Below, piece after piece: positions 984 to 58,435 of a DNA stretch of 64,000 nucleotides. The DNA comes from Candidatus Omnitrophota bacterium (lineage in GTDB: Bacteria > Omnitrophota > Gorgyraeia > Ghiorseimicrobiales > Ghiorseimicrobiaceae), in the NCBI GenBank assembly GCA_030681595.1, contig JAUXSB010000055.1, forward strand, positions 364 through 64,363. The letters run 5' to 3'. The notes below the pieces were generated by a model. It was not told where the DNA came from. It made no database searches and was given only the letters and a program-made list of their open reading frames with translations. Position numbers and translations under genes: made by a program. How positions within the stretch are numbered: position 1 is the first letter of the stretch; every line of letters starts with the position of its first letter.

Positions 984-1034
984 AAGGCTTAACTTATTCT
1001 ATCTAATAAATAGTTGCCCCTCATTTTCAAACAA

Positions 1035-1062
1035 CTCAAAATTCTCCTAAGAGAATTTTGAG
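1035..1062 (+). terminator. Perfect 12-bp stem hairpin 'ctcaaaattctc-ctaa-gagaattttgag', followed by a second hairpin 'tcccgcc-agag-ggcggga' at ~1084-1100.
   Basis: Inverted repeat read directly, 50 nt downstream of the stop at 983 and upstream of a strong RBS 'aaggaggaagg' before the ATG at 1119. Confidence 0.45.
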
Positions 1063-1118
1063 TTAAACTGCGGGGTAAATTAGTCCCGCCAGAGGCGGGA
1101 TTAATTTAAGGAGGAAGG

Positions 1119-4137: not shown

Positions 4138-4176
4138 TTGACAATTTGTCCCTTGTTTAAATAAGGGATTTATACC
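4138..4176 (+). promoter_or_regulatory. Candidate promoter region. 'ttgaca' at 4138-4143, with the palindrome 'cccttgtttaaataaggg' where a -10 element would sit; the -10 itself is poor.
   Basis: -35 consensus hexamer read directly. No convincing TATAAT at 16-18 nt spacing. Confidence 0.2.
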
Positions 4177-4270
4177 GAAAGTAAAACGCTTAAAAATTTA
4201 TCCCAAATTTTTATCGCTGTTTTCGGTATCAATTCGTCCCGAAGCTTCGGGATTCTTTGAGGAGGTTTTA

Positions 4271-15068: not shown

Positions 15069-15073
15069 CAAGA

Positions 15074-16213: not shown

Positions 16214-16224
16214 CGAGAAGCATC

Positions 16225-27588: not shown

Positions 27589-28125
27589 ATGCGCAGGGTA
27601 GTTTTAAGCGGGGCAGCAGTATTGTCGTTGTGTCTAGGTAGCTTGGTCTTTGCACAAGGGAATCATAAGTATATCGGGGTAAAGAAGTGTTCTATGTGCC
27701 ATAAGTCTGATGAAAAGGGAAATCAATATAATCAGTGGCTTTCTACTAAGCATGCTAAAGCATATGAAACGTTAGCCACCGATGCAGGTAAAGAAACAGC
27801 GCAAAAAGCGGGAGTTACCGGGAATCCTCAAGAAGAACCTAAGTGTTTGAAGTGCCATGTGACAGCATATGGAGTGGATAGCGGTTTATTAGAGGAAGGT
27901 TTGAAGAAAGAAGACGGCGTGCAGTGCGAAGCTTGTCATGGCGCCGGAAGTGATTATATGTCGATGAGTGTTATGAAGGATAAACAAAAAGCAATTGAAG
28001 CGGGCCTTGTTATGCCGACACAAGAAGTTTGCCTAAAGTGCCATAATGAGGAAAGCCCGAATTATAAAGAGTTTAAGTTTGATGAGTTTTATCCAAAAGT
28101 TACGCATCCTAATCCAAAAAAATGA
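27589..28125 (+). CDS. Periplasmic tetraheme cytochrome c.
   Basis: Signal peptide 'MRRVVLSGAAVLSLCLGSLVFA'. CSMCH, CLKCH, CEACH, CLKCH. RBS 'gaggagggtg'. Confidence 0.8.
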   Translation: MRRVVLSGAAVLSLCLGSLVFAQGNHKYIGVKKCSMCHKSDEKGNQYNQWLSTKHAKAYETLATDAGKETAQKAGVTGNPQEEPKCLKCHVTAYGVDSGLLEEGLKKEDGVQCEACHGAGSDYMSMSVMKDKQKAIEAGLVMPTQEVCLKCHNEESPNYKEFKFDEFYPKVTHPNPKK

Positions 28126-28259
28126 AGCTATAAGTTATGGCGGCGTCAGCCAACATAACTTATTCGGTTGAATTTACCCAGCACTTATTTTATTAGCATT
28201 AAATAAGTGCTGGGTTCAATGCGCACCTATAAGTTACGTCGTTTGACACTCCGTAACTT
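28126..28259 (+). promoter_or_regulatory. Three consecutive hairpins: 'ataagttatg..cataacttat', a ~20-bp stem 'ttgaatttacccagcacttattt / aaataagtgctgggttcaa', and 'ataagttacg..cgtaacttat'.
   Basis: Inverted repeats read directly, between the cytochrome stop and the ccsB start. The outer hairpins belong to the 'ATAACTTA/TAAGTTAT' leader family. Confidence 0.4.
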
Positions 28260-29327
28260 ATGTGCTTACTGAAAATGATTAAGCAGACAAAAATCTGGAA
28301 GTTTTTTTCATCAATAAAGCTGGCGATATGGCTGCTTGCTATTATCGCTATATTTTCTTTGATTGGAACGTTTATTCCGCAAGGACAAGAGCCCGCGGAG
28401 TATACTAGCCATTACGGGAGTTCCGCATATAATCTCTTAAATATAACAGGCCTGACTCATGTTTATTCAAGCTGGTGGTTTATTTTATCGTTGGCTTTGC
28501 TTACCTTAAACCTTTCCGTTTGCCTTATCAATAGGTTTTCATTAAAGCCTATTTTATTGGGTACGATGATTTCGCATTTTAGCGTCTTGCTGATATTTGC
28601 CGGGGCATTGGTCGGCATGTTTTTCGGTGAAAAAGGCTATGTGCAGATTAAGGAAGGGGAAAGCATTAGTTCTTTTATTTCTGAAAATAAAAAAGTGGAT
28701 TTAGGTTTTACGCTTAGGTTAGATGATTTTATTTATGAGGAAGAAATAAGCCCTAAGGAAAAATTATTGATTTACTCTCATGAAGATAACAAACTTTTGA
28801 AAGAAGTTGCTGTGAGTTTAGGCAAAGAAATTAGTTTCGGCGAAGGCTATAAAGTTAAAATTATGCGTTTTATCCCTGATTTCAGCATGGATCTTACTAC
28901 AAAAGAGGTAGTAAGCCGTTCGTCTGAGCCGAGGAATCCCGCTATAGAGATAGAGCTGAAAGATAGAGAGGGCAATGCAAAAACATTTTGGGTGTTTGCG
29001 AATTTTCCAGATATGCATTCAGTGCAAACAGATTTTAGATTCGTCTATCAGTGGGGGATGCGGCGGCCAAAGGATTTTATCAGCAAGGTTACAGTATTAA
29101 AAGGCGCAGAAGAAGTAGCGAAGAAGGACATTAAGGTAAATTTTCCCCTGAAGTTTAACGGTTATTCCTTTTTTCAGTCAAGTTATGACAGGGAAAATTT
29201 AAGCTGGTCGGGGTTGCAAATAAATAAAGACCCGGGAGTGTCGGTAGTGTATACGGGGTTTCTTTTGCTGCTTTTAGGGTTAAGCATTATTTTTTATGTA
29301 AACCCTTTGGTTAGGAGGAAGAAATGA
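28260..29327 (+). CDS. ccsB: Cytochrome c biogenesis protein, system II (ResB/CcsB).
   Basis: N-terminal 'KIWKFFSSIKLAIWLLAIIAIFSLIGTFIPQ', a large periplasmic domain and a C-terminal TM, as in ResB. Immediately upstream of ccsA. Confidence 0.8.
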   Translation: MCLLKMIKQTKIWKFFSSIKLAIWLLAIIAIFSLIGTFIPQGQEPAEYTSHYGSSAYNLLNITGLTHVYSSWWFILSLALLTLNLSVCLINRFSLKPILLGTMISHFSVLLIFAGALVGMFFGEKGYVQIKEGESISSFISENKKVDLGFTLRLDDFIYEEEISPKEKLLIYSHEDNKLLKEVAVSLGKEISFGEGYKVKIMRFIPDFSMDLTTKEVVSRSSEPRNPAIEIELKDREGNAKTFWVFANFPDMHSVQTDFRFVYQWGMRRPKDFISKVTVLKGAEEVAKKDIKVNFPLKFNGYSFFQSSYDRENLSWSGLQINKDPGVSVVYTGFLLLLLGLSIIFYVNPLVRRKK

Positions 29328-36000: not shown

Positions 36001-36036
36001 GCTTAGAGTAAGAGCGGAGAGCTTAGAGTAAAAAGT

Positions 36037-36078: not shown

Positions 36079-36080
36079 AG

Positions 36081-37238: not shown

Positions 37239-37244
37239 TAATAA

Positions 37245-38417: not shown

Positions 38418-38481
38418 GTAGAGAGTATAGTGTATTGAGTATAGAGCAAAAGAATTAAAAATGAAGAATGAAGAATTATAA

Positions 38482-41738: not shown

Positions 41739-42656
41739 ATGTGGTATCAAGTATCCCCGCCTGTGGCGGGACAGGCAGGTATCAAGTATCAAGTAATAAT
41801 TGCTGTTGCGGTTTCGCTATTGTACTTTTGTTTTCTGCCGGCTTATGGCTCGTCTGAGTGCAGCCAGTGCCATCAAATAGAGGCAGAAAGTTTTGCTTTG
41901 ACTAAACACGCGATAGATAAAAACTGCGATATTTGCCACGGGAGCAGCGAGAAACACTTAACTGCAGAGGTTAAAAAGGATAATATTATTAATCCCAACG
42001 GGTTAAATCTTAAAAAGGGGAATGGTATATGCCTTAGCTGTCATACGGAAAAAGCGAAAGACGTAAGTGAGAGGTTTGTTGCTGTAGCGAGCCTGCATGA
42101 TGATTTACGTTGTTATGAATGCCATACGGTACATTTAAAAAGCTCTGACGAAGAGGCCGATGTAGATTTATTTAAAGACGACCTATATGTTGATTGTTCC
42201 CTTTGTCATAGTAATCAGGCGGAAAATTTTTCTGATTCCGGGCATGGTTTGTCAGGAATAAAATGTTTAGACTGCCATAAGCCGCATGAAGCAAAAACAA
42301 TAAGTCAGGATATAGAAGGAGAAATTGATAAATGCTTGTCTTGCCATCCGGCTCAGGAGTTGGAATTTAAATCTTTTTACGCGCATCCGCTTCGCCAGAG
42401 GCAGATTAGGTGCAGTGATTGCCATAACCCACATAGTAACAATTATGATAAAATGCTCAAAAAAGACGCGGATGATTTATGCGGGGATTGCCACGCCGGT
42501 ATTATGATTGAAGGGGGTAAGCATCCGCTAAGCAAGAATACGAACCATCCGTTTAAAACGGTGGAATGCCTGGATTGTCACCGGCCTCACGGTTCAAATT
42601 TTGATAAGCTGTTAAAACACAATATAGACAATATCTGCAAAACATGCCATAATTAA
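41739..42656 (+). CDS. Multiheme c-type cytochrome (11 CxxCH) with a signal peptide; second cytochrome partner of the beta-barrel.
   Basis: CSQCH, CDICH, CLSCH, CYECH, CSLCH, CLDCH, CLSCH, CSDCH, CGDCH, CLDCH, CKTCH. N-terminal hydrophobic 'VIIAVAVSLLYFCFLPAYG'. Confidence 0.8.
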   Translation: MWYQVSPPVAGQAGIKYQVIIAVAVSLLYFCFLPAYGSSECSQCHQIEAESFALTKHAIDKNCDICHGSSEKHLTAEVKKDNIINPNGLNLKKGNGICLSCHTEKAKDVSERFVAVASLHDDLRCYECHTVHLKSSDEEADVDLFKDDLYVDCSLCHSNQAENFSDSGHGLSGIKCLDCHKPHEAKTISQDIEGEIDKCLSCHPAQELEFKSFYAHPLRQRQIRCSDCHNPHSNNYDKMLKKDADDLCGDCHAGIMIEGGKHPLSKNTNHPFKTVECLDCHRPHGSNFDKLLKHNIDNICKTCHN

Positions 42657-42699
42657 AAATACGGATTAACACGGATAAAATATACGGATTCATACGGAT

Positions 42700-42870
42700 T
42701 TAAGGAGTTGCGCCGAAAGCAGAGCACTTGAAAATTTGTAACAAATTTTCTCATAGCTTTCGGCATCTCCGCCACAAAGCGTTGGCGGATCCGCCTCTGG
42801 CGGAAATTCTGTCATGCGCAAATAACTTACATCTGCTACGCATTCGTAAGTTATGCGCTCATTGAGGAGG
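42700..42870 (+). promoter_or_regulatory. Composite 5'-leader repeat. Nested hairpin 'gcgccgaaagc..gaaaatttgtaacaaattttc..gctttcggc', then palindrome 'ataacttac..gtaagttat', then 'gcgctcattgaggagg' (SD) directly before the ATG at 42876.
   Basis: Same modules in the same order at 44255-44375 and 45594-45820; the last module is also at 52245-52325. Read directly. Confidence 0.5.
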
Positions 42871-42875
42871 ATTGA

Positions 42876-43769
42876 ATGTGTAATAGCAATACGAAGAAAT
42901 TATTTTCATTTTTCACTTTTAATTTTTCACTTTTAATTTTTTTAGCCGGTTGCGCATCCGGCCCGTCCAGCTATTTTAGGTTAAAGCCGGTATCTAAGGA
43001 TACACATGTAAAAACGGCTATTATTCCTTTTACTAATCTTACATCTGAAAAAGACGCGGAGAAAAAAATCGCCTACGCATTAATAACACACCTTCTAAAT
43101 ACGACTTATTTTGATATTGTTGAAACAGGAGAGGTACAGAAAGCGATGCGCGATGGTAAGGTGCGCAAAGACGAGGACTTATCTTTAGAGAATATAAAAA
43201 GTATCGGCCAGCTTACCGGCGCAGACGTCCTTTTAATGGGCGTGGTTGAAGAATACAAGATTGATTCCAGTACTCTGTTAGGCGAAAAAGTATTCGTTCC
43301 GGAAGCCTCTGTCAGCCTGCGGCTTGTCAGCGTCAAAGACGGCTCAATCGTCTGGTCGGTAAACCACCACCGCAGAGGCGATGACCGCGTGACTATCTTT
43401 GGTATGGGCAGGGTAGATTCCATAAGTACTCTTACGGATATAATCATAAAGAATAGCGTTGATTCTTTAATGCGGGTGATGAGAAAAAGGCGTAATGCCT
43501 TAGCGATGTTAAAGAACAACCCGCCTGCCGAAGAAGCCGTTGGTAAGGATGCTGTTATAAAAAAAACAGATAAACAGGGCAGAAAAGATGCGGGCCGGCA
43601 AAAGGCGATAGAGGATGCCATAAAAGGATCCGGGAGCAAAAAAGAAATAAAAAAAGAAAAGGCTGTTTCTTTGCCGCCTGTTAAAGATGTTACTAAGCCT
43701 AAAGACGCACGCCAGGAAATAAAAGACCAGTATAACCAGGAATACGAAAAAATCAAAAAACAATACTAA
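42876..43769 (+). CDS. Outer-membrane lipoprotein of the CsgG/FlgO-like family (curli-secretion-channel-like fold), with a K/E-rich low-complexity C-terminus.
   Basis: Lipobox 'LIFLAGC'. 'TAIIPFTNLT...KIAYALITHLLNTTYFDIVETGEVQKAM...IGQLTGADVLLMGVVEEY' matches the CsgG-family N-terminal consensus (AVxPFxN...L...FxVVER...GAD.ll.G.V). Confidence 0.45.
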   Translation: MCNSNTKKLFSFFTFNFSLLIFLAGCASGPSSYFRLKPVSKDTHVKTAIIPFTNLTSEKDAEKKIAYALITHLLNTTYFDIVETGEVQKAMRDGKVRKDEDLSLENIKSIGQLTGADVLLMGVVEEYKIDSSTLLGEKVFVPEASVSLRLVSVKDGSIVWSVNHHRRGDDRVTIFGMGRVDSISTLTDIIIKNSVDSLMRVMRKRRNALAMLKNNPPAEEAVGKDAVIKKTDKQGRKDAGRQKAIEDAIKGSGSKKEIKKEKAVSLPPVKDVTKPKDARQEIKDQYNQEYEKIKKQY

Positions 43770-43789
43770 TTTTTTATTAAGGGAAATTT

Positions 43790-44224
43790 ATGGCAAGATT
43801 CAGAATGTTGGGGGCGGCCATATTTATTTTTTTATTTTTTCTGTTTGCCATCAGTTATTGTATTTCTCAAGTAGCCAATGATGGTGATTACTGCTTATCC
43901 TGCCACAATAAGGACGTAAATTTAAGCAAGAAATTCCTGCATCCATTAGTTAAGGAAAAGAAATGCCGGGCTTGTCATATATCTTATGATAACAGCCGTC
44001 ATAAAGAAGGCGATGAACCTGTATTTAGTGCGTGTATAAGTTGCCATAGTGAAGAAAAATTAGGGCGTTCGCATCCGGTAGGAGATGGCGTCATTGATCC
44101 TAATACCAAAGATACGATGACTTGCGTATCCAGCTGCCACATACCGCATGGATCAGACTATAAGTATCAGCTGGCATTTAAGAACAATATGGAGTTATGT
44201 CTTAGTTGTCATAAGGATTTTTGA
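43790..44224 (+). CDS. Small c-type cytochrome (4-5 heme motifs) with a signal peptide.
   Basis: 'AAIFIFLFFLFAISYC' signal. CLSCH, CRACH, CISCH, CVSSCH (C-x3-CH), CLSCH. Confidence 0.7.
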   Translation: MARFRMLGAAIFIFLFFLFAISYCISQVANDGDYCLSCHNKDVNLSKKFLHPLVKEKKCRACHISYDNSRHKEGDEPVFSACISCHSEEKLGRSHPVGDGVIDPNTKDTMTCVSSCHIPHGSDYKYQLAFKNNMELCLSCHKDF

Positions 44225-44254
44225 TAGGGAGATTTTAAATTTCGTTATGCGGTT

Positions 44255-44375
44255 TAAGGAGTTGCGCCGAAAGCTAAACACTCGAAAATTTGTTACAAAT
44301 TTTCTTATAGCTTTCGGTATCAATTCGCGCAAATAACTTACATCTGCTGCGCATTCGTAAGTTATGCGCTCATTG
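44255..44375 (+). promoter_or_regulatory. Second copy of the composite leader repeat ('gcgccgaaagc' nested hairpin, then 'ataacttac..gtaagttat', then 'gcgctcattgaaagg'), directly before the ATG at 44389.
   Basis: Near-identical to 42700-42870 (for example 'ttgcgccgaaagctaaacactcgaaaatttgttacaaattttcttatagctttcggtatc'). Confidence 0.5.
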
Positions 44376-44388
44376 AAAGGATAAAATT

Positions 44389-44967
44389 ATGGAAGGCAAG
44401 AATTTCAAGCGAAAAAAATATTTTTTAAAAAATTCCTCGCAGCCGGTTTTAATTTTAAAAGTTTATCTTTTGCTTATTGTAGTGATGTTTTTGTCTGGCG
44501 CGGTATTTTATTTTATCGGAAACAAAAATTTAACTCATGAGTTATTCCAGGCGCACTCGGTAATAAAAACTACAATGCAGCTTTTATTTCCGGCTTTACT
44601 TTTGGTAAATATTATCGGCCTTTTGGGCGCAGCCTCTTTAGTAATATTTTTTACGCATTCTATCGCCGGGCCGATTCACCGCCTTAAGACTTTATCGGAA
44701 AAGATTGCCAGCGGAGATTTAACACTAGAAGTAAAATTCCGCAAGAGAGATGAAATTCAGGAATTAGCCGCGGTGATAAACAATATTATTAAAGGGTTGA
44801 ATTTCCGATTAAGAAATTTTGAAAATTCTTTATATAAGCTGCGCGGATTATCCGTAAAAATAAACGATATCGATAAACTTTCGCATGGGGAACTTAACAA
44901 CCTTAAAAATTCTCTTATGGCGGTAAGCGAAGAACTGGAAGAAAAGATAAAAAAGTTTAATTTATAG
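44389..44967 (+). CDS. Membrane protein with a HAMP-like linker domain (signal-transduction-type); function unknown.
   Basis: Two TM segments flanking a periplasmic loop. 'IAGPIHRLKTLSEKIASGDLTLEVKFRKRDEIQELAAVINNIIKGL' resembles a HAMP domain. Confidence 0.45.
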   Translation: MEGKNFKRKKYFLKNSSQPVLILKVYLLLIVVMFLSGAVFYFIGNKNLTHELFQAHSVIKTTMQLLFPALLLVNIIGLLGAASLVIFFTHSIAGPIHRLKTLSEKIASGDLTLEVKFRKRDEIQELAAVINNIIKGLNFRLRNFENSLYKLRGLSVKINDIDKLSHGELNNLKNSLMAVSEELEEKIKKFNL

Positions 44968-45089
44968 CATCTACCCCGTATATTAAGAAGCTAGCGTTTT
45001 TCAAACCCGCGTTTTTTACTTCTCTAATGTCTTATTCAATGCTATAATTGCCCATAGTTATTATTTAAACAGCAAAAAAGGAGGCCTTT

Positions 45090-45593
45090 ATGGAGAATCC
45101 GTTGCGAAAGAATCTTATTTTTGCGCTCATTACGATCTCTATTGGAGGATTGCTGTTGCATTTAAGGATTCATCCTCTTATTGTAGATGGAATTTTAGAA
45201 TTCGAGCATCTTATTCCTGCTGTTTTTGGCGCTTTAAGCGTTATTGTAGTACCTTGTCTTTTTTTAAAACAAAATACTGCGGATTTGGCGTATCTTTTAA
45301 CCGGATTAAGCGTTATTTTTGGCGCGATCATAATGAGCCATTTATCTATCGCGACATGGGAAGGGGGAGTCTCCTTGCTGAAAATTATGCTTAAGACGAC
45401 ATTAGCTGATTCCTTGATACTCTTAGCGAAGTTTTTTATAGGAAAAGCCTTATTTGAGAGCTATTTTCCTGAGCGCCTAAAATTAAATTGTCAATTTCCT
45501 CAAAGTTTTCGGTTTTTGTTTGACGGTTGGTGGCTTCTGCATTTTATAGGCATTACGGTGGTTTATACGTTGGGAGCGGTTTTATTTAAGTAA
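45090..45593 (+). CDS. Hypothetical integral membrane protein (about 5 TM).
   Basis: Hydrophobicity only. RBS 'aaaaggagg' upstream. Confidence 0.4.
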   Translation: MENPLRKNLIFALITISIGGLLLHLRIHPLIVDGILEFEHLIPAVFGALSVIVVPCLFLKQNTADLAYLLTGLSVIFGAIIMSHLSIATWEGGVSLLKIMLKTTLADSLILLAKFFIGKALFESYFPERLKLNCQFPQSFRFLFDGWWLLHFIGITVVYTLGAVLFK

Positions 45594-45820
45594 GGATGCG
45601 CCGAAAGCAAAACGCGCGAAAATTTCAAAAAATTTTCTTGCTGCTTTCGGCATCAATTCGCGCAAATAACTTATTCACGCTACACATTCGTAAGTTATGC
45701 ATTGCGCCGAAAGCAAAGCACTCGAAAATTTCAAAAAATTTTCTTGCTGCTTTCGGCATCAATTCCGACAGATAGTTTACGTAAATTTCATTTACGTAAA
45801 CTATGCCGTCATTGAGGAGG
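45594..45820 (+). promoter_or_regulatory. Two tandem copies of the 'gcgccgaaagc..ttttcttgctgctttcggcatcaattc' hairpin module, each followed by a palindrome ('ataacttattcacgctacacattcgtaagttat', then the variant 'tagtttacgtaaatttcatttacgtaaacta'), ending in 'gccgtcattgaggagg'.
   Basis: Read directly. Same family as 42700 and 44255. Confidence 0.5.
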
Positions 45821-45826
45821 GAACTC

Positions 45827-45931
45827 ATGAAAATAATAAAATATTTCACGATTGGCAAGCCCGGTTTTTGGATACTACATATAGCAGCTGTCGCAGGGAT
45901 TTTATTTTTAGGGGCAAAGATTAGATTCTAA
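45827..45931 (+). CDS. Small hydrophobic peptide (34 aa, MKIIKYFTIGKPGFWILHIAAVAGILFLGAKIRF); hypothetical.
   Basis: ATG 7 nt after the strong SD 'gaggaggg' that closes the conserved leader element. Single predicted TM helix. Not in the ORF track because it is shorter than the track cut-off. Confidence 0.35.
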   Translation: MKIIKYFTIGKPGFWILHIAAVAGILFLGAKIRF

Positions 45932-45945
45932 CAAATATAACGCAA

Positions 45946-47766
45946 ATGGATTTTTTTAGAAATTATAATTTTAAAAGCGCGATTAATAGGCCCTGGGTAA
46001 TCAGCGTTGTATTAATCGCGTTGATAGCGATAGTCGGATTTTATATTTACGCTAATTGTTTAGACGGAAAATTTATCTGGGATGATGTCTGGTATGTAAA
46101 AAATAATTTCCATATAAAGCACTGGTCGCATATCCGTAAGATTTTTACAAGTGATATATACCTCAGGACAGATTTTGGCACGGGTAACGCATTCTACCGG
46201 CCGCTTCAGATGTTTAGCTATATGATTGATTATTCTGTCTGGAAGCTTAATGTAAAAGGATACCATCTTAGCAATATTGCCTTACATATCCTCACCGCGT
46301 TAAGCATATACTGGTTAATTAATATCCTCTGGCGCGATCAATACCTTTCATTGTTTACCGCCTTATTATTTATCACCCATCCCATACATACTGAAGCGGT
46401 TGACTATATAGCTGGACGGGCGGATTCTTTAGCCGCTTTGTTTGTAATCATTTCTTTCGTATTATATATAAAGCAGATTGATGGCAGGCGTATGGGTATA
46501 AGCTTCTTGATGCTGGCAAGCTATATTTTAGCGCTTCTTTCTAAGGAATACAGCTTGATCTTATTGGGGGTATTGCTGCTCTATAGTTATACTTTTAAAC
46601 GCAGCTTAAAGAACAGGGGTTTTTATCTGATTTTAATCGCCAGCTTTAGCTATATCTTATTGAGGCTGACTATCCTAAAGAAATTACTGATTGTGCAGTT
46701 AAGCTTCGATAATGGCTTTTTAGAAAGAATCCCGGGATTCTTTGTCGCGATAACCAATTATATAAGGCTTCTAGTGTTTCCGTTTAATCTGCATATGGAA
46801 TACGGCATTGATTTATTTGATATTAGGGACCCCAAGGCGATAGCAGGTGCTTTATCGGCTATTCTTTTGCTTTTTTTTGCGTTTAAAAAACGAAAGACAG
46901 ATAAATTAGCCTTTTTTTCTGTTTCCTGGTTTTTTATAACATTGCTGCCGGTTTCAAATCTTTATCCTATCAATGCTTATATGGCCGAACACTGGTTATA
47001 TTTGCCTTCCTTAGGATTTTTTTTAATCGTCGCGAGATTCCTATGGTCGCTATTTAGGACGGCGCGTTTTAGAAGCATTGCGTTGTTTTGCGTGCTAGCC
47101 CTGGCGTCGTTTTACTCGTATTTGACTATAAAACAAAACGAATATTGGAGGGATCCGATAGTTTTTTTTCAGAGGACGCTCGAGTATTCTCCTTATAGTG
47201 CGCGATTATACCTTAATCTCGCCAATGCTTATAGCGATTCCGGCAGATATGACGAAGCCATTGGTTCATACAAGAAAGCAATAGAACTACTCCCGGATTG
47301 CGCTGATGCATACACCAATTTTGGCGTAGTCTATAGCAGGCTGGGTAGGCACGAGGAGGCGATTGCCTTATACAAGAAGGCGATAGAAATAGCTCCGGAT
47401 AACGCGCAGGCATACACAAACCTCGGTAATGCTTATATGGATATTGGAAGGCATAATGAGGCGATTGTCTTATACAGGAAGGCGATAGAAATAAATAAGG
47501 GCCATGCGGAAGCATATTATAATTTAGGAGTGGCATATGATAGGCTCGAGAATCCTAAAGAGGCGATCATTGCTTACAGAAAGGCGATCGAGATTAACCC
47601 GGCGCATACGGATGCTTATTATAATCTTGGGATTTTGTATGTTGGCTTAGGCGATAAGTTAAAAGCAATAGAATTTTTCAAAAAATCCATAGAAGCCGAT
47701 CCTGATAATATTGATGCCGCCTATAACCTTGAGGTTATGCGTATTTCACAGGGCAGTAAAAATTAG
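45946..47766 (+). CDS. Polytopic membrane protein (GT-C / protein-O-mannosyltransferase-like N-terminal domain) fused to C-terminal TPR repeats.
   Basis: About 11 TM helices in the N-terminal 400 aa. Then 7 or more canonical 34-aa TPR units ('AYTNLGNAYMDIGRHNEAIVLYRKAIEI...'). Confidence 0.65.
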   Translation: MDFFRNYNFKSAINRPWVISVVLIALIAIVGFYIYANCLDGKFIWDDVWYVKNNFHIKHWSHIRKIFTSDIYLRTDFGTGNAFYRPLQMFSYMIDYSVWKLNVKGYHLSNIALHILTALSIYWLINILWRDQYLSLFTALLFITHPIHTEAVDYIAGRADSLAALFVIISFVLYIKQIDGRRMGISFLMLASYILALLSKEYSLILLGVLLLYSYTFKRSLKNRGFYLILIASFSYILLRLTILKKLLIVQLSFDNGFLERIPGFFVAITNYIRLLVFPFNLHMEYGIDLFDIRDPKAIAGALSAILLLFFAFKKRKTDKLAFFSVSWFFITLLPVSNLYPINAYMAEHWLYLPSLGFFLIVARFLWSLFRTARFRSIALFCVLALASFYSYLTIKQNEYWRDPIVFFQRTLEYSPYSARLYLNLANAYSDSGRYDEAIGSYKKAIELLPDCADAYTNFGVVYSRLGRHEEAIALYKKAIEIAPDNAQAYTNLGNAYMDIGRHNEAIVLYRKAIEINKGHAEAYYNLGVAYDRLENPKEAIIAYRKAIEINPAHTDAYYNLGILYVGLGDKLKAIEFFKKSIEADPDNIDAAYNLEVMRISQGSKN

Positions 47767-47812
47767 CCGATAATTTTAAGTATTTAAATAGCGCCAGAGG
47801 AGGAAGGAAGAT

Positions 47813-48526
47813 ATGTCGAACGATGCGATTATTTTAATAGGAGCCGCGTTGAGCATCGGTTTTTTTCATACTGTATTTGGGCCGGACCATTACTTGCCTT
47901 TTGTTGCGATGTCTAAGGCGCGAAAGTGGAATATGGCTAAAACCGGAGTAGTCACATTATTATGCGGCTTGGGGCATGTGTTAAGTTCCGTTGTGCTTGG
48001 GTTTATAGGCATAGCTTTGGGTGTTGCCGTTTTTAAATTAGAGTCTATTGAGTCTTTTCGCGGCGATATCGCCGCCTGGTTTATGCTTATTTTTGGTTTT
48101 ACCTATTTTGTCTGGGGCTTGCGCATGGCAATCCGTAACAAGCCCCACAACCATTCTCATGAACACGCCAGGCATGGGTTGCATGAACATCCGCATAAGC
48201 ATAGCGATGAACACCTGCATATTCACGCGGCCAATGAAAAAGCCAATATAACTCCGTGGGTTCTTTTTACCATTTTTGTATTCGGGCCATGCGAGCCGCT
48301 CATCCCTATTTTAATGTACCCGGCAGCCAAGGGTAATATAACATCGGTAGCGATAGTGGCAGCGGTTTTTGGCATCGCTACTATTTCTACGATGCTGGCA
48401 TTAGTATTTATTTTTTCTTACGGTTTATCTAAGATTCCGCTTGCAAGATTAGAAAGGTATTCGCATGCCCTTGCCGGCCTGATAATTTTTTTCTGCGGGG
48501 GGGCAATTAAGTTTTTGGGGTTATAG
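47813..48526 (+). CDS. RcnA/HupE-UreJ-like nickel/cobalt transporter with a His-rich cytoplasmic loop.
   Basis: 'FGPDHYLP' and 'FGPCEPLIP' TM motifs. Loop 'NHSHEHARHGLHEHPHKHSDEHLHIHAANE'. Confidence 0.6.
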   Translation: MSNDAIILIGAALSIGFFHTVFGPDHYLPFVAMSKARKWNMAKTGVVTLLCGLGHVLSSVVLGFIGIALGVAVFKLESIESFRGDIAAWFMLIFGFTYFVWGLRMAIRNKPHNHSHEHARHGLHEHPHKHSDEHLHIHAANEKANITPWVLFTIFVFGPCEPLIPILMYPAAKGNITSVAIVAAVFGIATISTMLALVFIFSYGLSKIPLARLERYSHALAGLIIFFCGGAIKFLGL

Positions 48527-48530
48527 ATAC

Positions 48531-50213
48531 TTATTCTGCGGGATTATTTAATCCGAGCGGCTCTTTAAATTTATCCGCAACTTCATAGCCAAACCAGATA
48601 GCCTTTTTAAAATATTTCCTTGCCATATCATAATCCTTGCAATAATAGTAAACAGTAGCTAATTCACGGTAAGCCTTCGCAAAGCTGGGATCAATCTCTA
48701 TTGCTTTGCTTAGTGCTTTGATTGCCTCATCCGGTTTATTTATTTCATTATATACAACACCGAGATTACGATATGCAGATGGATAATTCGGCTGGATTTT
48801 CAGGGCTTTTTCAAATGCCTTAATCGCTTCAGCATATTCACGGATTATGAAATAACAACAACCTATATTATTATATACCTCTGCCGAATCAGGATAAATC
48901 TTAACAATCTTGAATAGTATCGCTAGTGCTTTTTTCGCCTCTCCTGTCTTAGAATATTCATCTCCGAGATTAATAAGCATATCCGGGTTATCAGGATTAT
49001 AGCGCAGCGATTGCTCGTAAAGCGATACAGGGTTATTCCAAAAGTAATTTTGCTTTATTGTCAAAAAGGAAAACATTAAAACCGCGCAAACCGTAGCTGA
49101 TATTGCGTACGGTTTTATTTGTTTTAAGCCGCAGAAATATAGAAGCACCCGTGCTAGAATAAGAAAAAAGCCAAAAGAAGGAAGATAAAGGAAGTGTTCG
49201 GCCATAAAGAATGCCAGCGGATATATATTTGAAACGGGTAGCAGCGTAATTAAAAACCAGATAAGCGCAAAAGACAACAGAGGATTTTGTTTTCTTTGTT
49301 TTACAGCGATAATGCATATTACGATTACAGCGCATATACCGGTGATTACTATCGCGTCGCTAAGAAGGAATATTTTTTTCCCGTAGTTTATATGGAGATG
49401 AATCGGGAACGTCAAGAGCCGGACATAGCTCAATATTGCGGCAAAAAACCCCGGGATCCTTTCTGGGATTGTCGAGATAGATGATGGCCTGAATGGAGCT
49501 GATTGGAGAATAAATAGCCGTAAGATAACGTATGTGCAAGTAAATATTGCCGTGGTAATAAAGGCCGCAATAGGTATTCGTTTGCGAAAGATGTAATGAT
49601 AAGAAAGTAAAAGCGCCGGAAATATCAAGGCATCCTCTTTCGATAGTAGCGCAAGGGTATAAGAAAGCGCCATAGCGGCATAATAGGCGATTTTGTTTTT
49701 TCTGTTGGTATCGATATTTTTTATATAGCAGATAAATCCAGTCAGGATAAATAACGCAGATAAAATTCCGCCTCGCCCGGAAATATAACTAACCGATTCA
49801 GCGTGAACAGGATGTGTAATAAATAATACCGATGTCAAAAAAGAAAGATAGCTATTTCCGGATAATAGGTAGGTTAGCCAATAGATACACAGTGCTACAA
49901 AAATATGCAGGATTGTATTTGTAATATGGTATCCGGTAACTGACAGATTCGAAAAATAATAATCTGCCATATAAGTGATTATTTGCAGGGGGCGGTAAAA
50001 AGCACTTCTTGTCTCTACTTGACCGCTACCTTTAAAACTGGTTGTTAAAACTGTTGGTGTATTGCGGAAACTTCTTATATGAACATTATCCGTAATCAGG
50101 CCAGAATCATCCCAGATAAACGGCGCATCAAAGGATGTGCTGTATGTGCGCCAGCCCAGAAGGATTATTAATATTGTTGTTAATAAATGAAATATTTTGT
50201 GATTGTTCTGCAT
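48531..50213 (-). CDS. Paralog of 45946-47766: polytopic GT-C/PMT-like membrane domain fused to TPR repeats. This is the only minus-strand gene.
   Basis: Same architecture, with shared blocks such as 'YHLSNIALHILTALSIYWLI' versus 'YHITNTILHIFVALCIYWLT' and 'FITLLPVSNLYPINAYMAEHWLYLPSLGFFLI' versus 'FLITLLPVSNIYPLAFFMAEHFLYLPSFGFFLI'. Confidence 0.65.
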   Translation of the reverse strand: MQNNHKIFHLLTTILIILLGWRTYSTSFDAPFIWDDSGLITDNVHIRSFRNTPTVLTTSFKGSGQVETRSAFYRPLQIITYMADYYFSNLSVTGYHITNTILHIFVALCIYWLTYLLSGNSYLSFLTSVLFITHPVHAESVSYISGRGGILSALFILTGFICYIKNIDTNRKNKIAYYAAMALSYTLALLSKEDALIFPALLLSYHYIFRKRIPIAAFITTAIFTCTYVILRLFILQSAPFRPSSISTIPERIPGFFAAILSYVRLLTFPIHLHINYGKKIFLLSDAIVITGICAVIVICIIAVKQRKQNPLLSFALIWFLITLLPVSNIYPLAFFMAEHFLYLPSFGFFLILARVLLYFCGLKQIKPYAISATVCAVLMFSFLTIKQNYFWNNPVSLYEQSLRYNPDNPDMLINLGDEYSKTGEAKKALAILFKIVKIYPDSAEVYNNIGCCYFIIREYAEAIKAFEKALKIQPNYPSAYRNLGVVYNEINKPDEAIKALSKAIEIDPSFAKAYRELATVYYYCKDYDMARKYFKKAIWFGYEVADKFKEPLGLNNPAE

Positions 50214-50417
50214 TTTTTGTCAAAACTAAGGATGAGTATTAAATTATTGGCTTTGAATCTATTTTAATATTTTTGCTTGAGGTAATCAAGTTAATTTTAA
50301 AGTTTATAATCGTCATCGTGATCCGGATTAGGGATAGTTCTGAAAAAAGTTGCGACAGGATTATAATTATTGTATACTAATACAGTAACTTATAACAGTA
50401 TAGGTGGTTAGAACAAA

Positions 50418-51125
50418 ATGAAACTGTCTATTATCATCCCCACATATAATGAATCAAATACCATCGATGGCCTTATTAAATACGTGCAGTCTGTAAGCTT
50501 TCCCATTGATTATGAGATTATTATTATCGACGATGCTTCGGTTGATAGAACGCTTGAGAAAGAATTTTTGATCAAACAAAAGAATAAATTCGAAAAGAAT
50601 AATATCAGAATATTCCGGAATCGTCTTAACCGCGGAAAAGGATTTTCGATACGTAAGGGGATCCGGCGAGCAAAAGGGGATATTTTGATTATACAGGATG
50701 CCGATATGGAGTATGACCCCAGCGATATCCCTAAATTAATCGATCCGCTTATTAAAGGGGAAGCAGAGGTAGTATACGGAAGCCGGTTTTTAAATAGCGC
50801 GCGTCCTGAAGGGATGGCGTTTCCAAATTGGATAGCAAATAAGGTCCTTACAAAAATCACAAATATGCTTTTTGGGCTTAGGCTTACCGATATGGAGACA
50901 TGTTATAAGGTCTTTAGGGCAAGTATTATTAAAGGCATTAAGCTACGAACGAACAGGTTCACTTTTGAACCGGAAATCAGCGCTTTATTAGCTAAAAGGA
51001 AAATAAAAATTAAGGAATTACCGATAAAATATCACGGACGGACATCAAGAGAAGGAAAGAAGATAAAAGCGATTGATTTTGTGTTTGCTGTTTTGGTGTT
51101 GTTCTGGCAACGCCTTACACCATAA
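50418..51125 (+). CDS. Family-2 glycosyltransferase (polyprenol/dolichol-phosphate mannosyltransferase-like).
   Basis: 'LSIIIPTYNE', 'DDASVDRT' and 'IQDADMEYDP' GT2 motifs. 235 aa. Confidence 0.75.
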   Translation: MKLSIIIPTYNESNTIDGLIKYVQSVSFPIDYEIIIIDDASVDRTLEKEFLIKQKNKFEKNNIRIFRNRLNRGKGFSIRKGIRRAKGDILIIQDADMEYDPSDIPKLIDPLIKGEAEVVYGSRFLNSARPEGMAFPNWIANKVLTKITNMLFGLRLTDMETCYKVFRASIIKGIKLRTNRFTFEPEISALLAKRKIKIKELPIKYHGRTSREGKKIKAIDFVFAVLVLFWQRLTP

Positions 51126-51384
51126 ATAACTTCTGTTATGCCGTTTAGGCAGCGGTATTCGAAAGCTTGGAGCATCGGTTATGCTGGATGTAACAAAGAA
51201 AAGATACAGGTTATGAATTATTATCTGTGCCTAAATAATTAAAATACTTTTCAATTCTAATCAATTATAATATAATAAATGTATGTGTTGTTTACGCGCC
51301 AAAGGATAAATTCAGTCCTATGGCTTGCGCAGAGGCATATACTGTTCGTAGGTTATATCTTCATGCGAAAAAAGGAGTTTTTTA

Positions 51385-51681
51385 ATGTTTGATAAGATGA
51401 AACAATTATTTGAACTGCAAGGTAAAATGCAGGCTGTAAAGAAGGAATTGGAAAATTCTTCGGTGGAATCACAGTCAAGAGGCGGCGACATCAAGATTGT
51501 GATTAGGGGGGATCAAAAAGTAAGTTCTATCAATATAGCCGATTCTTTGTTGAGCCCGGAAAACAAGGCTTTATTTGAGAGAGATTTAGTTAATTGTTTT
51601 AATGAGGCCATAAAGAAATCTCAAGGCTTAGCCGCTGAAAAAATGAAACAGGTAACCGGGATAAATTTACCGGGGTTTTAA
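51385..51681 (+). CDS. ybaB: YbaB/EbfC family nucleoid-associated DNA-binding protein.
   Basis: 98 aa. 'MKQLFELQGKMQAVKKELE...GGDIKIVIRGDQKVSSINI' is the typical YbaB pattern. Confidence 0.8.
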   Translation: MFDKMKQLFELQGKMQAVKKELENSSVESQSRGGDIKIVIRGDQKVSSINIADSLLSPENKALFERDLVNCFNEAIKKSQGLAAEKMKQVTGINLPGF

Positions 51682-51744
51682 AGAAGAAAGCAAGGGCAAG
51701 CGAATCTTAAGGAAAGGTATTAACTAACCTTGGCCTTATAATCG

Positions 51745-52134
51745 TTGAATCGAGTGAAAGCTATAAAAAATATTATTTGCCTATTTTTCGGCTTGTGTTT
51801 GTTATCCGGATGTTTCAGCCGTGAGAAGATGCAGGCTATTAATACTCTGCGCGATATAGCCAAAGAACGCGCGGAACAAGAAAAAATAGTTGAGCAGGAA
51901 AAGAAGAAGTTTCAACTGTTGCTTAAAGATATAGAAAACGGTACGCTGAAAAAGGGTTTAAGAGAGGGCGAAGTTTATAGGTCGTATGGCGCCCCATTAA
52001 GTACTAAATATTCAGAGGGGGAAGAAAAAAATAAAATATTGGTATTTGCCGAGCCGCTAAATTATTTTGGCGCCGGTAAGGTCTATTTGTATTTTGATGA
52101 ATATAACAAATTGGGTTCGTGGGAGGTTAAGTGA
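51745..52134 (+). CDS. Hypothetical lipoprotein.
   Basis: Lipobox 'LLSGCFS'. 129 aa. No recognisable domain. Confidence 0.4.
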   Translation: MNRVKAIKNIICLFFGLCLLSGCFSREKMQAINTLRDIAKERAEQEKIVEQEKKKFQLLLKDIENGTLKKGLREGEVYRSYGAPLSTKYSEGEEKNKILVFAEPLNYFGAGKVYLYFDEYNKLGSWEVK

Positions 52135-52325
52135 AGCCTCCGCCGAAGGCTGATCCGCCTGCGGCGGGGTCATTGTCCCGATAGCAAAGCGCTGCGTAGA
52201 TTTTTTCAAAATCTACTTGCAGCTATCGGGATTAATTCCGGCTGATAACTTATGCCCGCCCGACCAAATAGTCATTCGGGCGCGGTCGCCCCCAGGCTTC
52301 ATAAGTTATGCCGTCATTGAGGAGG
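52135..52325 (+). promoter_or_regulatory. Leader repeat: 'gataacttatg' - 'cgcccgaccaaatagtcattcgggcgcggtc' hairpin - 'cataagttatgccgtcattgaggagg' (SD).
   Basis: Combines the 8612-type hairpin with the 'ATAACTTA/TAAGTTAT'+SD module seen at 42820, 44320 and 45770. Confidence 0.45.
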
Positions 52326-52331
52326 AAGAAT

Positions 52332-52565
52332 ATGCCGTATGATAAGAATTTGGATGCTGAAATTTTTTCCGAAATCGTCGACTTCGGAGATACAAAAATA
52401 ACCGTAAGCGTGTTTTCTTATAACAAGGCTGAACCTAAATTGCAGGTTTCCCGACAGGTGAAAAGGGCGCAGGACGAATGGATTTTTGCTAAGCTGGGCA
52501 GGTTAAATAAACCTGAGGCGGAAGCAGTCGTACCATTGATGCAGAAAGCCATGGGGAAGATGTAA
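52332..52565 (+). CDS. Small hypothetical protein (77 aa), possibly a PC4/YdbC-like ssDNA-binding fold. Start moved to the ATG after the SD.
   Basis: ATG 7 nt after 'gaggagg'. 'ITVSVFSYNKAEPKLQVSRQ...KRAQDEWIFAKLGRL' resembles bacterial PC4-like proteins (weak). Confidence 0.4.
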   Translation: MPYDKNLDAEIFSEIVDFGDTKITVSVFSYNKAEPKLQVSRQVKRAQDEWIFAKLGRLNKPEAEAVVPLMQKAMGKM

Positions 52566-55396: not shown

Positions 55397-55529
55397 AATC
55401 CCAATGTCCAATTACCAATGTCAAATAAATTCCCAGTGACCAATGCCCAATTACGATTGGAGATTGGAAAATTGGAAATTTATTGGGATTCGGTAATTAA
55501 TAATGGGTCATTGTTAAGAAGGGGTCGGC
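55397..55529. repeat. Low-complexity intergenic spacer built as an imperfect long palindrome: (CCAAT)n-rich left half, (ATTGG)n-rich right half.
   Basis: 'cccaatgtccaattaccaatg...ccaatgcccaatt' then 'gattggagattggaaaattggaaatttattggg'. A similar spacer lies at 58299-58435. Confidence 0.45.
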
Positions 55530-58298: not shown

Positions 58299-58435
58299 TG
58301 ACCAAATCCTAATTCTCAACGTCTAATCAATCCCCAATGACTAATAGTAAATTGAAAATTGTAAAATTGGGAATTAATTGAGATTTGGAAATTGGTTAAT
58401 TGGAAATTTAACAGAGAGGGAGGGTTTTAAAAGCA
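58299..58435. repeat. Second CCAAT/ATTGG-type low-complexity palindromic spacer.
   Basis: 'accaaatcctaattctcaacgtctaatcaatccccaatgactaat' then 'attgaaaattgtaaaattgggaattaattgagatttggaaattggttaattgg'. Confidence 0.45.

Follow-up and report, generated by a model that had tools for sequence, protein, structure and literature searches.

Why does the same structured sequence stand directly in front of functionally unrelated genes in an uncultivated Omnitrophota bacterium? For the stretch of DNA analysed here (the window, 64,000 nucleotides), a first-pass annotation had described a repeated modular cassette lying in sense orientation directly 5' of unrelated genes and had read it as a switch that sequesters the ribosome-binding site (RBS), or as a promoter/RBS module. 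The cassette itself holds up in our analysis, but the switch or promoter reading does not.

A repeat family in the window

The window contains nine copies or part-copies, eight of them on the + strand (Table 1), a larger family than had been annotated, and the presence of this family far beyond chance is confirmed. An exact match to the 24-mer TAAGTTATGCGCTCATTGAGGAGG lies at 42847-42870 and one with two mismatches at 52302-52325, where 0 matches were expected from 100 shuffles; the 11-mer GCGCCGAAAGC alone stays within chance (14/100 shuffles), but the whole nested hairpin is beyond it. A repeat search of the window connected 42699-42865, 44253-44376, 45597-45815 and 28223-28272 by repeat families of 50-141 nt, and copies A and B are 90-98% identical.

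Two covariance models were used, R1, built from six window copies (E-value cut-off 10) and scoring 75-156 bits on these sources, and R2 (E-value cut-off 1). Copies at 4161-4278 (101 bits, before a prepilin-type gene) and, in diverged form, at 1005-1124 (24 bits) had been missed by the first-pass annotation, while its proposed members at 56858 and 51130 matched neither R1 nor R2 at these cut-offs and do not belong to the family. Its members at 28131 and 28237 are genuine, but the hairpin at 28131 is a minus-strand P2 (28114-28177, 39 bits). The tandem duplication that it described was recovered at 45598-45815. About 40 additional copies are confined to closely related Omnitrophota genomes and metagenomes. 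Several other repeat families also occupy spacers in the same genome.

Table 1. Copies and part-copies of the repeat in the window and the positions of their parts.
Copy	Span	Strand	Scores	P1 and 5' parts	Linker	P2	3' parts and downstream gene
G (diverged member)	1005..1118	+	R1 24 bits, E 9e-5	1016-1076	AAAUUAG 1077-1083	short, GC-rich, 1084-1100	UUAAUUUA 1101-1108; SD 1109-1114; ATG 1119 (502-aa protein)
E	4161..4270	+	R1 101.5 bits	4172-4229	CAAUUC 4230-4235	short, GUCCCGAAGCUUCGGGAU 4236-4253	UCUUUGA 4254-4260; SD 4261-4265; ATG 4271 (prepilin-type N-methyl protein; Pfam N_methyl)
F' (lone inverted P2 module)	28114..28177	-	R2 39.1 bits (minus) vs 21.3 bits (plus strand)				
F	28164..28274	+	R1 45 bits, R2 64.6 bits	diverged palindrome 28176-28215	UCAAUGC 28216-28222	28223-28265	UUACUGA 28266-28272; without SD; ATG 28275 (ResB; Pfam ResB)
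A	42699..42875	+	R1 139 bits	42710-42764	holds GC-rich double-hairpin insertion 42768-42804; AAUUC 42805-42809	42816-42858	UCAUUGA 42859-42865; SD 42866-42870; ATG 42876 (LpoB/CsgG-like lipoprotein; Pfam)
B	44253..44388	+	R1 155.7 bits, R2 81.5 bits; fold z-score -5.3	44264-44318	AUCAAUUC 44319-44326	44327-44369	UCAUUGA 44370-44376; weak SD AAGGA 44377-44381; ATG 44389 (HAMP protein)
C1 (internal tandem-array unit)	45594..45703	+	R1 74.6 bits, R2 33.9 bits; repeat search	45598-45651	45652-45659	45660-45701	junction UUG; without SD
C2	45704..45826	+	R1 139.7 bits, R2 76.7 bits; fold z-score -7.6	45704-45757	45758-45765	45766-45808	UCAUUGA 45809-45815; SD 45816-45820; ATG 45827 (34-aa ORF)
D	52135..52331	+	R1 123.6 bits	GC-rich module 52135-52168 (CCUCC 52137-52141); P1 52175-52231	UUAAUUC 52232-52238	52239-52313; apex holds nested 31-nt GC-hairpin insertion (about 52254-52284)	UCAUUGA 52314-52320; SD 52321-52325; ATG 52332 (77-aa protein, then mgtE)

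Fold and covariation

Each unit runs from hairpin P1 through an AU-rich single-stranded linker, AUCAAUUC, to hairpin P2 and the tail UCAUUGA. In P1, an internal loop separates the GC-rich outer stem from an inner stem of A/U pairs (AAAAUUU...AAAUUUU type). The hairpins are maintained by compensatory changes, with strong covariation: P2 is 96.2% paired (slid controls, 28-44%) with double changes at 13 of 22 pairs, and the outer and inner stems of P1 are 97% paired with eight covarying pairs. This covariation supports the hairpins of the earlier description. Within the window, the P2 arms of C2 (AUAGUUUACGUAAA/UUUACGUAAACUAU) are fully compensated, and those of F (AUAAGUUACG/CGUAACUUAU) differ from the consensus by compensated changes. 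Unpaired positions in the linker, the UC/UC loops and the bulge are conserved as well. No clear excess of G-U over A-C was seen in the stems (P2, 4 vs 9; 10 of 19 P1 copies are closed by a G-U pair), so the stems do not distinguish folding in sense RNA from folding in DNA.

In the conserved fold the last five bases of the tail, AUUGA, which directly precede the SD, pair with UCAAU of the linker, and the SD is single-stranded. This helix at the base of P2 occurs as UCAAU/AUUGA, UUAAU/AUUAA, UGAAU/AUUCA, AAAU/AUUU, UUCA/UGAA and, in copy G, as AAAUUA/UAAUUU, a compensated form of the first. Since the tail pairs back to the linker, the P2 helix ends at position -1, counted from the nucleotide at which the functional part of the downstream RNA starts.

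An RBS-sequestering switch could draw on two facts. The SD does lie inside the repeat, the common sequence of near-identical copies extending through it (A vs B, L017 vs L033), and the accessory GC-rich modules of copies A and D hold CCUC(C) that pairs with the SD in minimum-energy folds; the insertion of copy A contains AUCCGCCUC (42789-42797), complementary to the SD. However, the core is without an anti-SD and its fold leaves the SD unpaired, so RBS occlusion is unsupported, and predicted SD accessibility is not reduced: it is 0.50 for the cassettes (n=13) against 0.41 for other genes (n=67), a difference that is not significant (p=0.14). That it is not significantly raised either counts against a leader cassette. 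The arms taagttat and cattgagg, suggested to pair over the SD, are not complementary; the true partner of taagttat is ataactta. A promoter module fares no better, because sigma-70-like hexamers are absent inside the element, the GG and GC of the linker are wrongly spaced for sigma-54 (by eye), and covarying arms would not be expected of a promoter. Promoter-like sites lie instead upstream of several copies, including L011, L023 and copy A (TAGACA-17-tgCATAAT, 42625-42653), which places those copies within 5' UTRs. We therefore consider a switch or promoter very improbable.

Position relative to the downstream RNA

Among the 35 terminal copies, 29 have an SD 0-3 nt after UCAUUGA, four have an SD-less AUG there (ResB in the window, radA, a sigma factor and a phosphoribosyltransferase) and two have G1 of tmRNA, whereas spacing on the 5' side is variable. 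The annotated position of P2 and SD immediately before the lipoprotein, HAMP, 34-aa and 77-aa reading frames was correct. The label PC4-like for the 77-aa protein was not confirmed: its fold matches are weak (Foldseek E 0.15-0.35; Pur-alpha, T5 PC4 homologue, YdbC), and Pfam and PDB sequence searches gave no match. Full P1-P2 units are all sense to the downstream gene with the sole exception of locus L071, and copy C1 starts 5 nt past the stop codon of the upstream gene. Antisense tandem copies at one locus, and a few inverted P2 copies located at stop codons, count against a leader cassette. The UCAUU end of F' overlaps with the TGA (28123-28125) that terminates the gene upstream, and L093 has similarly arranged inverted P2 modules at 6993-7054(-) and 10227-10289(-).

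The downstream genes have unrelated functions (L27, L32, RNase PH, YajC, RadA, ResB, pilin, ferritin-like protein), so the repeat is not a metabolite riboswitch, and as it also precedes the non-coding tmRNA it is not purely an mRNA/RBS device. Ending where the working part of the next RNA begins, it resembles a portable cassette for 5' leaders. If a trans-acting factor (a global RNA-binding protein, small RNA or ligand) bound this leader through the UC/UC internal loops, the AAA bulge and the P1 loop AAAGCGCU, all genes behind a cassette would form one post-transcriptional regulon; the conserved unpaired positions, the very high sequence conservation of the D locus and the consistent sense orientation next to the RBS would fit such binding. 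We nevertheless regard it as unlikely, given the lack of a common downstream function, the occurrence before tmRNA, the presence or absence of the element at orthologous genes of close relatives and the lack of any Rfam family matching the repeat. Moreover, P1 and P2 can be replaced by hairpins without those loops, such as type II P1 or the short GC-rich P2 of E, G and L096 (the type of copy E recurs in L096 and at L091:15962).

Comparison among relatives

The window and L091 share 97-100% identity in copy D but 72-82% in the coding sequence around it, and no other block within 3.5 kb is as well conserved as this copy; its 31-nt insertion is missing from L091, and related sequence occurs at about 8625-8660. 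Between L040 and L056, P2 is 94% identical with one G-C to A-U compensation, and P1 of L021 and L088 shows a C-G to A-U compensation. These comparisons show purifying selection at orthologous loci. At one orthologous locus (window, L091, L093, L096) P1 and P2 types mix freely, which argues that each hairpin acts alone and not as part of a joint aptamer. The element is missing upstream of tmRNA in three relatives and upstream of the lipoprotein gene in L093. Individual loci can therefore do without it, which again counts against a leader cassette.

The family shows REP/BIME/BOX-type dynamics, with inverted copies, arrays, nesting, presence/absence and module swapping. The earlier statement that it is not a generic REP element is thus right about its strongly non-random position and orientation, but not about these dynamics. 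They raise the possibility of selfish non-autonomous mobile DNA of the REP/BIME, MITE or IS200/IS605-derived PATE type, in which a transposase would recognise the hairpins in their DNA form, with any RNA effect incidental and the place next to the SD due to insertion-site preference or survivorship. Near-identical copies at unrelated loci (A/B, L017/L033), other repeats nested within P1 and P2 and wholesale spacer replacement between 95%-identical genomes also fit this explanation. So do the tandem arrays and P2-P1-P2 arrangements, the BIME-like inverted pairs (window F locus, L093 HAMP locus), the differing presence among relatives, CATTG-like sequence that flanks several copies left and right (GTCATTG in the case of D), the stems without G-U excess and the further repeat families that occupy spacers in this genome.

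The ends of IS200/IS605, PATEs and REP elements with RAYT transposases carry subterminal hairpins recognised by structure and not by sequence, together with a short motif beside the hairpin that can base-pair with its foot, and an orientation bias is possible. The hairpin and complementary flanking 5-mer of the Omnitrophota repeat resemble the guide/cleavage-site logic of IS200/IS605 ends, and orientation bias is a further likeness. However, the 240 kb examined contained no conserved left-hand target and, in a weak test with an approximate query, no associated Y1 transposase gene; the right-hand flank is purine-rich and not a fixed target, and the two hairpins are direct and not inverted. MITE-type terminal inverted repeats were not seen either, and plasmid, phage and viral collections yielded no copies. 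The coding sequence on either side diverges faster than orthologous copies do, and compensation keeps the pairing of these copies, which is unexpected for decaying parasitic copies, and all 35 terminal copies abut an SD, AUG or tmRNA +1. Pneumococcal BOX, RUP and SPRITE repeats occur more often than expected in the spacers of convergent gene pairs (PMC3049150), the opposite of the situation here. Mobile DNA of this kind is therefore a possible but doubtful explanation.

Relation to known systems

Like BOX (boxA-boxB(n)-boxC) and enterobacterial REP/BIME, the family consists of short, species-restricted, highly structured intergenic repeats with interchangeable modules that form arrays and vary among strains; co-transcription with neighbouring genes is a probable further likeness. 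It has no sequence similarity to them, its copies are almost all sense and end at an SD, AUG or RNA 5' end, and its orthologous copies have changed less than the genes around them. Mycobacterial interspersed repetitive units (MIRU) are likewise intercistronic within operons, oriented as the flanking genes and often tandem; they are, however, direct repeats with small ORFs overlapping neighbouring stop and start codons, not hairpin modules. In intercistronic RNase III signals of phage T7 (R1.1 type) and in synthetic 5'-UTR insulators (RiboJ, Csy4 sites), a cut separates the cistrons, the upstream message keeps a protective 3' hairpin and the downstream 5' end is standard. Here too a hairpin stands just upstream of the RBS, a functional analogy without homology; the Omnitrophota family is cellular, multi-modular and genome-dispersed.

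BOX modules raise or lower downstream gene expression depending on their orientation (PMC3049150). Neisseria Correia repeat-enclosed elements (CREE) within mRNAs are cut or protected by RNase III, Yersinia ERIC elements provide an orientation-dependent RNase E site, and this processing alters the stability of adjacent cistrons (PMC2649163; PMC3049150). By analogy, mRNA cleavage may also be the mechanism of the Omnitrophota repeat. Features of CREE that were not seen in it are the 26-bp terminal inverted repeats, TA target duplication, IHF sites and ends that generate promoters.

A proposed leader or intercistronic RNA cassette

Our leading explanation, to which we assign a probability of roughly 40%, is that the repeat is a leader or intercistronic cassette which duplicates, is transcribed with its neighbours and, as RNA, works in mRNA processing, stabilisation or insulation. 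We infer its cleavage, its stabilising and insulating effects and its spread. Transcribed together with the downstream gene, this lineage-specific structured cassette would act post-transcriptionally as a generic module, comparable to T7 RNase III signals or to the Correia and ERIC repeats that RNase III or RNase E cleaves. Endonuclease cleavage would fall within the linker or at the P2 base, after which P1 would close off the upstream message at its 3' end, and P2, or the cut at its base, would set a uniform, protected 5' end at the SD, the SD-less AUG (yielding a leaderless mRNA) or tmRNA position +1, the RBS remaining unpaired throughout. New copies would arise by duplication or by recombination between cassettes, with interchangeable modules. 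In a narrow group of uncultivated Omnitrophota bacteria, an exchangeable two-hairpin repeat occupies many gene-to-gene spacers, where it may serve as such a processing, stabilising and insulating module.

Anatomy and copies of the cassette

The repeat family noticed in the first-pass annotation of this region is real and extends beyond the copies first seen. Its unit, here called the cassette, is built of a 5' hairpin (P1), a linker, a second hairpin (P2) and the 3' tail UCAUUGA. P1 has a GC-rich outer stem of 11 bp (consensus AUACCGAAAGC/GCUUUCGGUAU) and an A/U inner stem of 8 bp (AAAAAUUU/AAAUUUUU), the two being separated by an internal loop that contains a GC/GC step of 2 bp. The linker, of sequence AUCAAUUC, pairs with the tail in the 5-bp base helix of P2 (UCAAU/AUUGA). 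Going up from this helix, P2 has a UC/UC internal loop, a helix of 4 bp, an AA/AU bulge, a longer helix of 10 bp (AUAACUUAYR) and another UC/UC loop, and it closes with an apical helix of 3-4 bp.

Secondary-structure prediction for single copies yielded the P1/P2 fold with z-scores of -2.2 to -7.6, and the helices of both hairpins were supported by covariation. Among 19 P2 modules, aligned without using structure, 96.2% of the cells were paired and changes on both sides occurred in 13 of the 22 pairs; slid controls reached a pairing of 28-44%. The outer and inner stems of P1 (19 modules) were 97% paired, with eight covarying pairs. Counts of G-U and A-C in the stems gave no clear strand signature that would tell folding as RNA from folding as DNA. 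No Rfam riboswitch, leader or ribozyme family matched the cassette. At the gathering threshold tRNA alone was matched in the whole window, a search of 42600-46000 with E up to 10 gave spurious matches only, and 20 related loci matched tmRNA and tRNA only.

In the window, a repeat search joined 42699-42865, 44253-44376, 45597-45815 and 28223-28272. The 24-mer TAAGTTATGCGCTCATTGAGGAGG is exact at 42847 and has two mismatches at 52302, with a chance expectation of none. A covariance model of the full unit (R1), trained on six window copies, scored these at 75-156 bits; the diverged copies, and the inverted P2 found with a model of P2 alone (R2), are listed in the table. Two further sites claimed previously, 56858 and 51130, were recovered by neither model. 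The window holds nine copies in 64 kb, and the family fills seven to eight of the approximately 20 spacers that are 80 nt or longer (roughly 40% of sizeable spacers), each cassette-bearing spacer lying between co-oriented genes of the plus strand (57 genes on the plus strand vs two on the minus strand).

Positions of cassette copies, their surroundings and other repeats (in the window, unless a related contig with an L-number is named)
Feature	Position	Model
Full diverged copy	28164-28290	R1, 45 bits
Diverged copy	1005-1124	R1, 24 bits
Inverted P2	28114-28177	R2
Inverted P2 / inverted-pair sites	28114-28290; L093 6993-7140, 10227-10289	
AUCCGCCUC in accessory GC-rich module, copy A	42789-42797	
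CCUCC in accessory GC-rich module, copy D	52137-52141	
GC-rich hairpin in P2 apex of copy D	52254-52284	
Its solitary relative (spacer 8611-8923)	8625-8660	
~75-nt repeat nested in P1	L058 ~4230-4330; L085 ~1180-1260; L091 15850-15915, 18795-18865	
Promoter-like site upstream of copy A	42625-42653	
ACGGAT direct repeats	42660-42700	
Divergent copy without ORF	L023 1571-1716	
MITE-like second family	4733-4866, 14957-15073, 16139-16224, 16740-16890	
CCAATG/CATTGG spacers	55397-55529, 58299-58435; L086 1670-1910	
AT-rich motif	37237-37275, 38453-38491, 63624-63662	
Tandem multihaem cytochrome genes	34915-38417	
77-aa protein gene	52332-52565	

The junction with the downstream RNA

The 3' end of the cassette is fixed relative to what follows. 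In the 35 terminal P2 modules listed, the gap between the tail and the next functional element is 0-3 nt. This element is an SD-like purine run in 29 of the 35, with the start codon 5-10 nt beyond, an AUG lacking an SD in four (resB in the window, radA in L020, a sigma factor gene in L091 and a phosphoribosyltransferase gene in L093) and nucleotide 1 of tmRNA in two (L021 by Rfam, L088 by sequence). The 5' side is unanchored: the distance from the upstream stop codon to P1 ranges from 3 to more than 100 nt. The genes served share no common function (L27, L32, RNase PH, YajC, RadA, ResB, pilin, lipoprotein, ferritin-like protein and tmRNA), and a metabolite riboswitch was rejected since they fall into no single pathway. 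Sense, 5'-proximal placement was seen for approximately 85% of the P2 modules and for nearly all P1-P2 units, a test limited by the co-orientation of the genes (57/59 in the window).

The first-pass annotation had suggested that the cassette could be a modular leader that either sequesters the ribosome binding site or supplies a promoter; the modular architecture and the hairpins stand, but neither proposed function is supported. In the core fold the SD is unpaired, and its predicted accessibility in cassette genes is not lower than in other genes (0.50 vs 0.41, p=0.14, not significant); occlusion of the ribosome binding site therefore fails for the core. The same comparison, taken as a test of insulation, gave no significant gain over other genes. 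The suggested pairing of taagttat with cattgagg is non-complementary and appears in no predicted fold. A switch helix P0, formed by a 5' AUU with the linker AAU as a rival of the P2 base helix, was rejected at 70% pairing and zero covariation. An aptamer with an expression platform was likewise discarded, given that P1 and P2 are swapped for unrelated hairpins at one orthologous locus, P0 is unsupported and the SD is not sequestered. A sigma-70 scan found no site within any copy, the best one lying upstream of copy A, and a sigma-54 promoter was rejected by eye; the base-pair covariation at conserved positions speaks against a promoter module of either type. We consider the riboswitch, promoter and SD-switch readings unlikely. 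Promoter-like sites do lie upstream of several copies, which places those copies inside 5' UTRs.

Some copies show additional features. Accessory GC-rich modules (CCGCC...GGCGG) on copies A and D carry AUCCGCCUC and CCUCC, and only in these two was the SD paired with CCUC(C) in minimum-energy folds; the module of copy D is identical in L091 (34/34). The stretch from the promoter-like site to copy A contains four direct ACGGAT repeats at intervals of approximately 10-13 nt, which could be a regulator binding array. A copy in L023 is oriented divergently to an acyl-CoA dehydrogenase leader; its end, UCAUUUAAUCUCCGUCCCC..., is followed by neither SD nor ORF up to the contig end, and the copy may precede another non-coding RNA.

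Distribution, spread and selection

Searches of genomes and metagenomes revealed further copies, all in Omnitrophota relatives or metagenomes. In a pattern scan across 185,579 species genomes, only two matched beyond chance, both Omnitrophota (GWA2_41_15 with nine contigs, CG11_42_13 with one). Ten of the 20 matches lay outside Omnitrophota, roughly as many as chance would give; the two run through the covariance model (L005, L009) did not match, and the other eight were taken as chance from this expectation. The metagenome scan yielded 64 pattern matches, of which R1 confirmed about 12, most of them from Hainich groundwater; the approximately 50 matches without confirmation by the covariance model were taken as chance. 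The window's own sequence was matched by a Logan contig and by a protein of an NCBI Omnitrophota MAG. Contigs reached via homologues of SmpB or of the 77-aa protein encoded downstream of copy D held more copies in relatives down to approximately 70% protein identity, and zero copies in relatives at 57-65%. Plasmid, phage and viral collections gave none, or chance matches without hairpins, and no account of Omnitrophota repeats or leaders was found in the literature. Several contigs start or stop within a copy; the cassette repeats break metagenome assemblies.

Near-identical copies stand before unrelated genes, as do copies A and B (90-98% identity) in front of the lipoprotein and HAMP protein genes and the pair L017/L033, and the stretch they have in common begins a few nt ahead of P1 and ends right after the SD. 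Arrays occur (C1-C2 in the window, three units before tmRNA in L021, P2-P1-P2 in L058), and at least two P1 and at least three P2 types are freely combined. Upstream of the orthologous 77-aa protein gene, the window and L091 carry P1-I with a long P2, L093 carries P1-II with a different long P2, and L096 carries P1-II with a short GC-rich P2. The tmRNA leader has a cassette in L021 and L088, which is missing in three relatives with other repeats there, and in two genomes with approximately 95% identical flanking genes the entire spacer from stop to ATG is swapped for another family variant. Inverted P2 copies lie on or beside the stop codon of the upstream gene, at times paired inversely around a central palindrome, and L071 has two copies in antisense tandem, flanked by a terminator and rimP.

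Small repeats of other kinds are nested within P1 or P2. In copy D, the P2 apex holds a GC-rich hairpin module (CCCGCCCGA...TCGGGCGCGG) that is missing from the L091 orthologue, and a relative of the module stands alone in another spacer. A structured repeat of approximately 75 nt (CCCCTAGAAATTGC...GGGACTAAGTCC...GCAGAGGG) is nested at one fixed position inside type II/type I P1.

A purely selfish element of the REP/BIME/PATE kind explains these family dynamics well. Orthologous copies, however, diverge slowly and with compensation. Copy D and its GC module are 97-100% identical between the window and L091, in comparison to 72-82% for the flanking coding sequence, and form the best-conserved 60-nt block across 3.5 kb of synteny. 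P2 with the SD is 94% identical between L040 and L056 vs approximately 82% in the flanks, with a compensatory change from G-C to A-U, and P1-II changed from C-G to A-U between L021 and L088. Decaying parasitic copies would not show this pattern. We hold a purely selfish nature to be a serious rival, though less likely than the RNA-level role proposed below.

Comparison with known element classes

The cassette is a further variant within the known class of structured interspersed repeats. REP/BIME elements lie in either orientation, frequently as inverted pairs and typically 3' of genes, and their genomes have an associated RAYT (Y1) transposase. The cassette family shares with them the many short imperfect palindromes, the intergenic location and the restriction to one lineage. 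Inverted P2 modules and inverted pairs exist (in the window, at two sites in L093 and in L071), but most modules are sense and 5'-proximal, and the nearly uniform gene orientation limits this comparison. A tblastn search of 240 kb of these genomes for a Y1 transposase gave no match, a weak test with an approximate IS200 TnpA query. MITEs are marked by terminal inverted repeats and target-site duplication. The ends of the unit (P1 5' arm and UCAUUGA tail) are not inverted repeats, and CATTG-like sequence, considered as a target-site duplication, flanks only about half of the copies on both sides, on which grounds a MITE was rejected. Integron attC sites are imperfect palindromes with RYYYAAC/GTTRRRY boxes in arrays of accessory gene cassettes. 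By eye, the P2 arms ATAACTTA/TAAGTTAT agree only loosely with the box consensus, and attC was rejected on account of the flanking genes, which have core housekeeping functions and conserved synteny. None of the known ribozyme models matched, and the free exchange of P1 and P2 types argues against a joint catalytic core. The mechanism proposed here would most resemble that of T7 RNase III signals and of Correia and ERIC repeats, the latter two being targets of RNase III or RNase E cleavage (PMC2649163; PMC3049150).

Neighbouring repeats and genes

A second, MITE-like family in the window has terminal inverted repeats (CC(C/T)CGTTAGAGAT ... ATCTCTAA(C/T)GGGG; CCCCGTTAGAGAT) around a GC-rich hairpin, and its ...AACGGGG end, a few nt upstream of start codons, could act as an SD. 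Short repeats of the CCAATG/CATTGG type form long imperfect palindromes in AT-rich spacers, and similar material takes the place of the cassette upstream of tmRNA in one relative. The AT-rich motif AATTAAAAATGAAGAATGAAGAATTA... closely precedes the starts of two cytochrome genes and, at a third site, closely follows tRNA-Arg(CCT). A long cytochrome/ResB/CcsA cluster, with synteny in L091 and L093, contains three paralogous genes for multihaem cytochromes in tandem (period approximately 1.2 kb, 71-81% identity). The 77-aa protein is conserved in Omnitrophota and is predicted by AlphaFold (pLDDT 91) to form four strands followed by a helix. Its designation as PC4-like was not confirmed: Foldseek gave only weak hits (E 0.15-0.35), to Pur-alpha, YdbC and the PC4 homologue of T5, and no sequence match came from Pfam or PDB.

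Possible role of the cassette

Several features together point to a putative generic role at the RNA level: the junction fixed at the SD, AUG or tmRNA +1, the bias towards sense copies, the location inside transcripts, hairpins that can be exchanged, and local purifying selection. We tentatively propose a processing, stabilising and insulating element, with a probability of about 0.4. The main hint of cleavage comes from the four SD-less AUGs, which directly follow a stable helix and would be hard to translate uncut; we infer from them that the transcript may be cut at the tail boundary, which would make these genes leaderless. A dedicated system defining 5' ends, either a lineage-specific endonuclease or self-cleavage, that cuts exactly after UCAUUGA seems quite improbable to us. 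Such a cut would let dozens of unrelated transcripts start uniformly at the SD, a leaderless AUG or tmRNA +1. Csy4 and RiboJ are 5'-UTR insulator parts of synthetic biology, and a cassette cut in this way would be their natural, exchangeable and genome-wide counterpart. The RNA-level role and the selfish view are compatible if a mobile repeat was domesticated.

Even as a selfish element, the cassette would be unusual for its fixed junction with the ribosome binding site and its conservation above neighbouring genes. If it acts at the RNA level, it would represent a new family of structured RNA, clearly covarying and lacking in Rfam, and a natural case of modular control over mRNA ends, stability and translation context. 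A large share of the genes of this uncultivated phylum would then stand under one standard, interchangeable leader.
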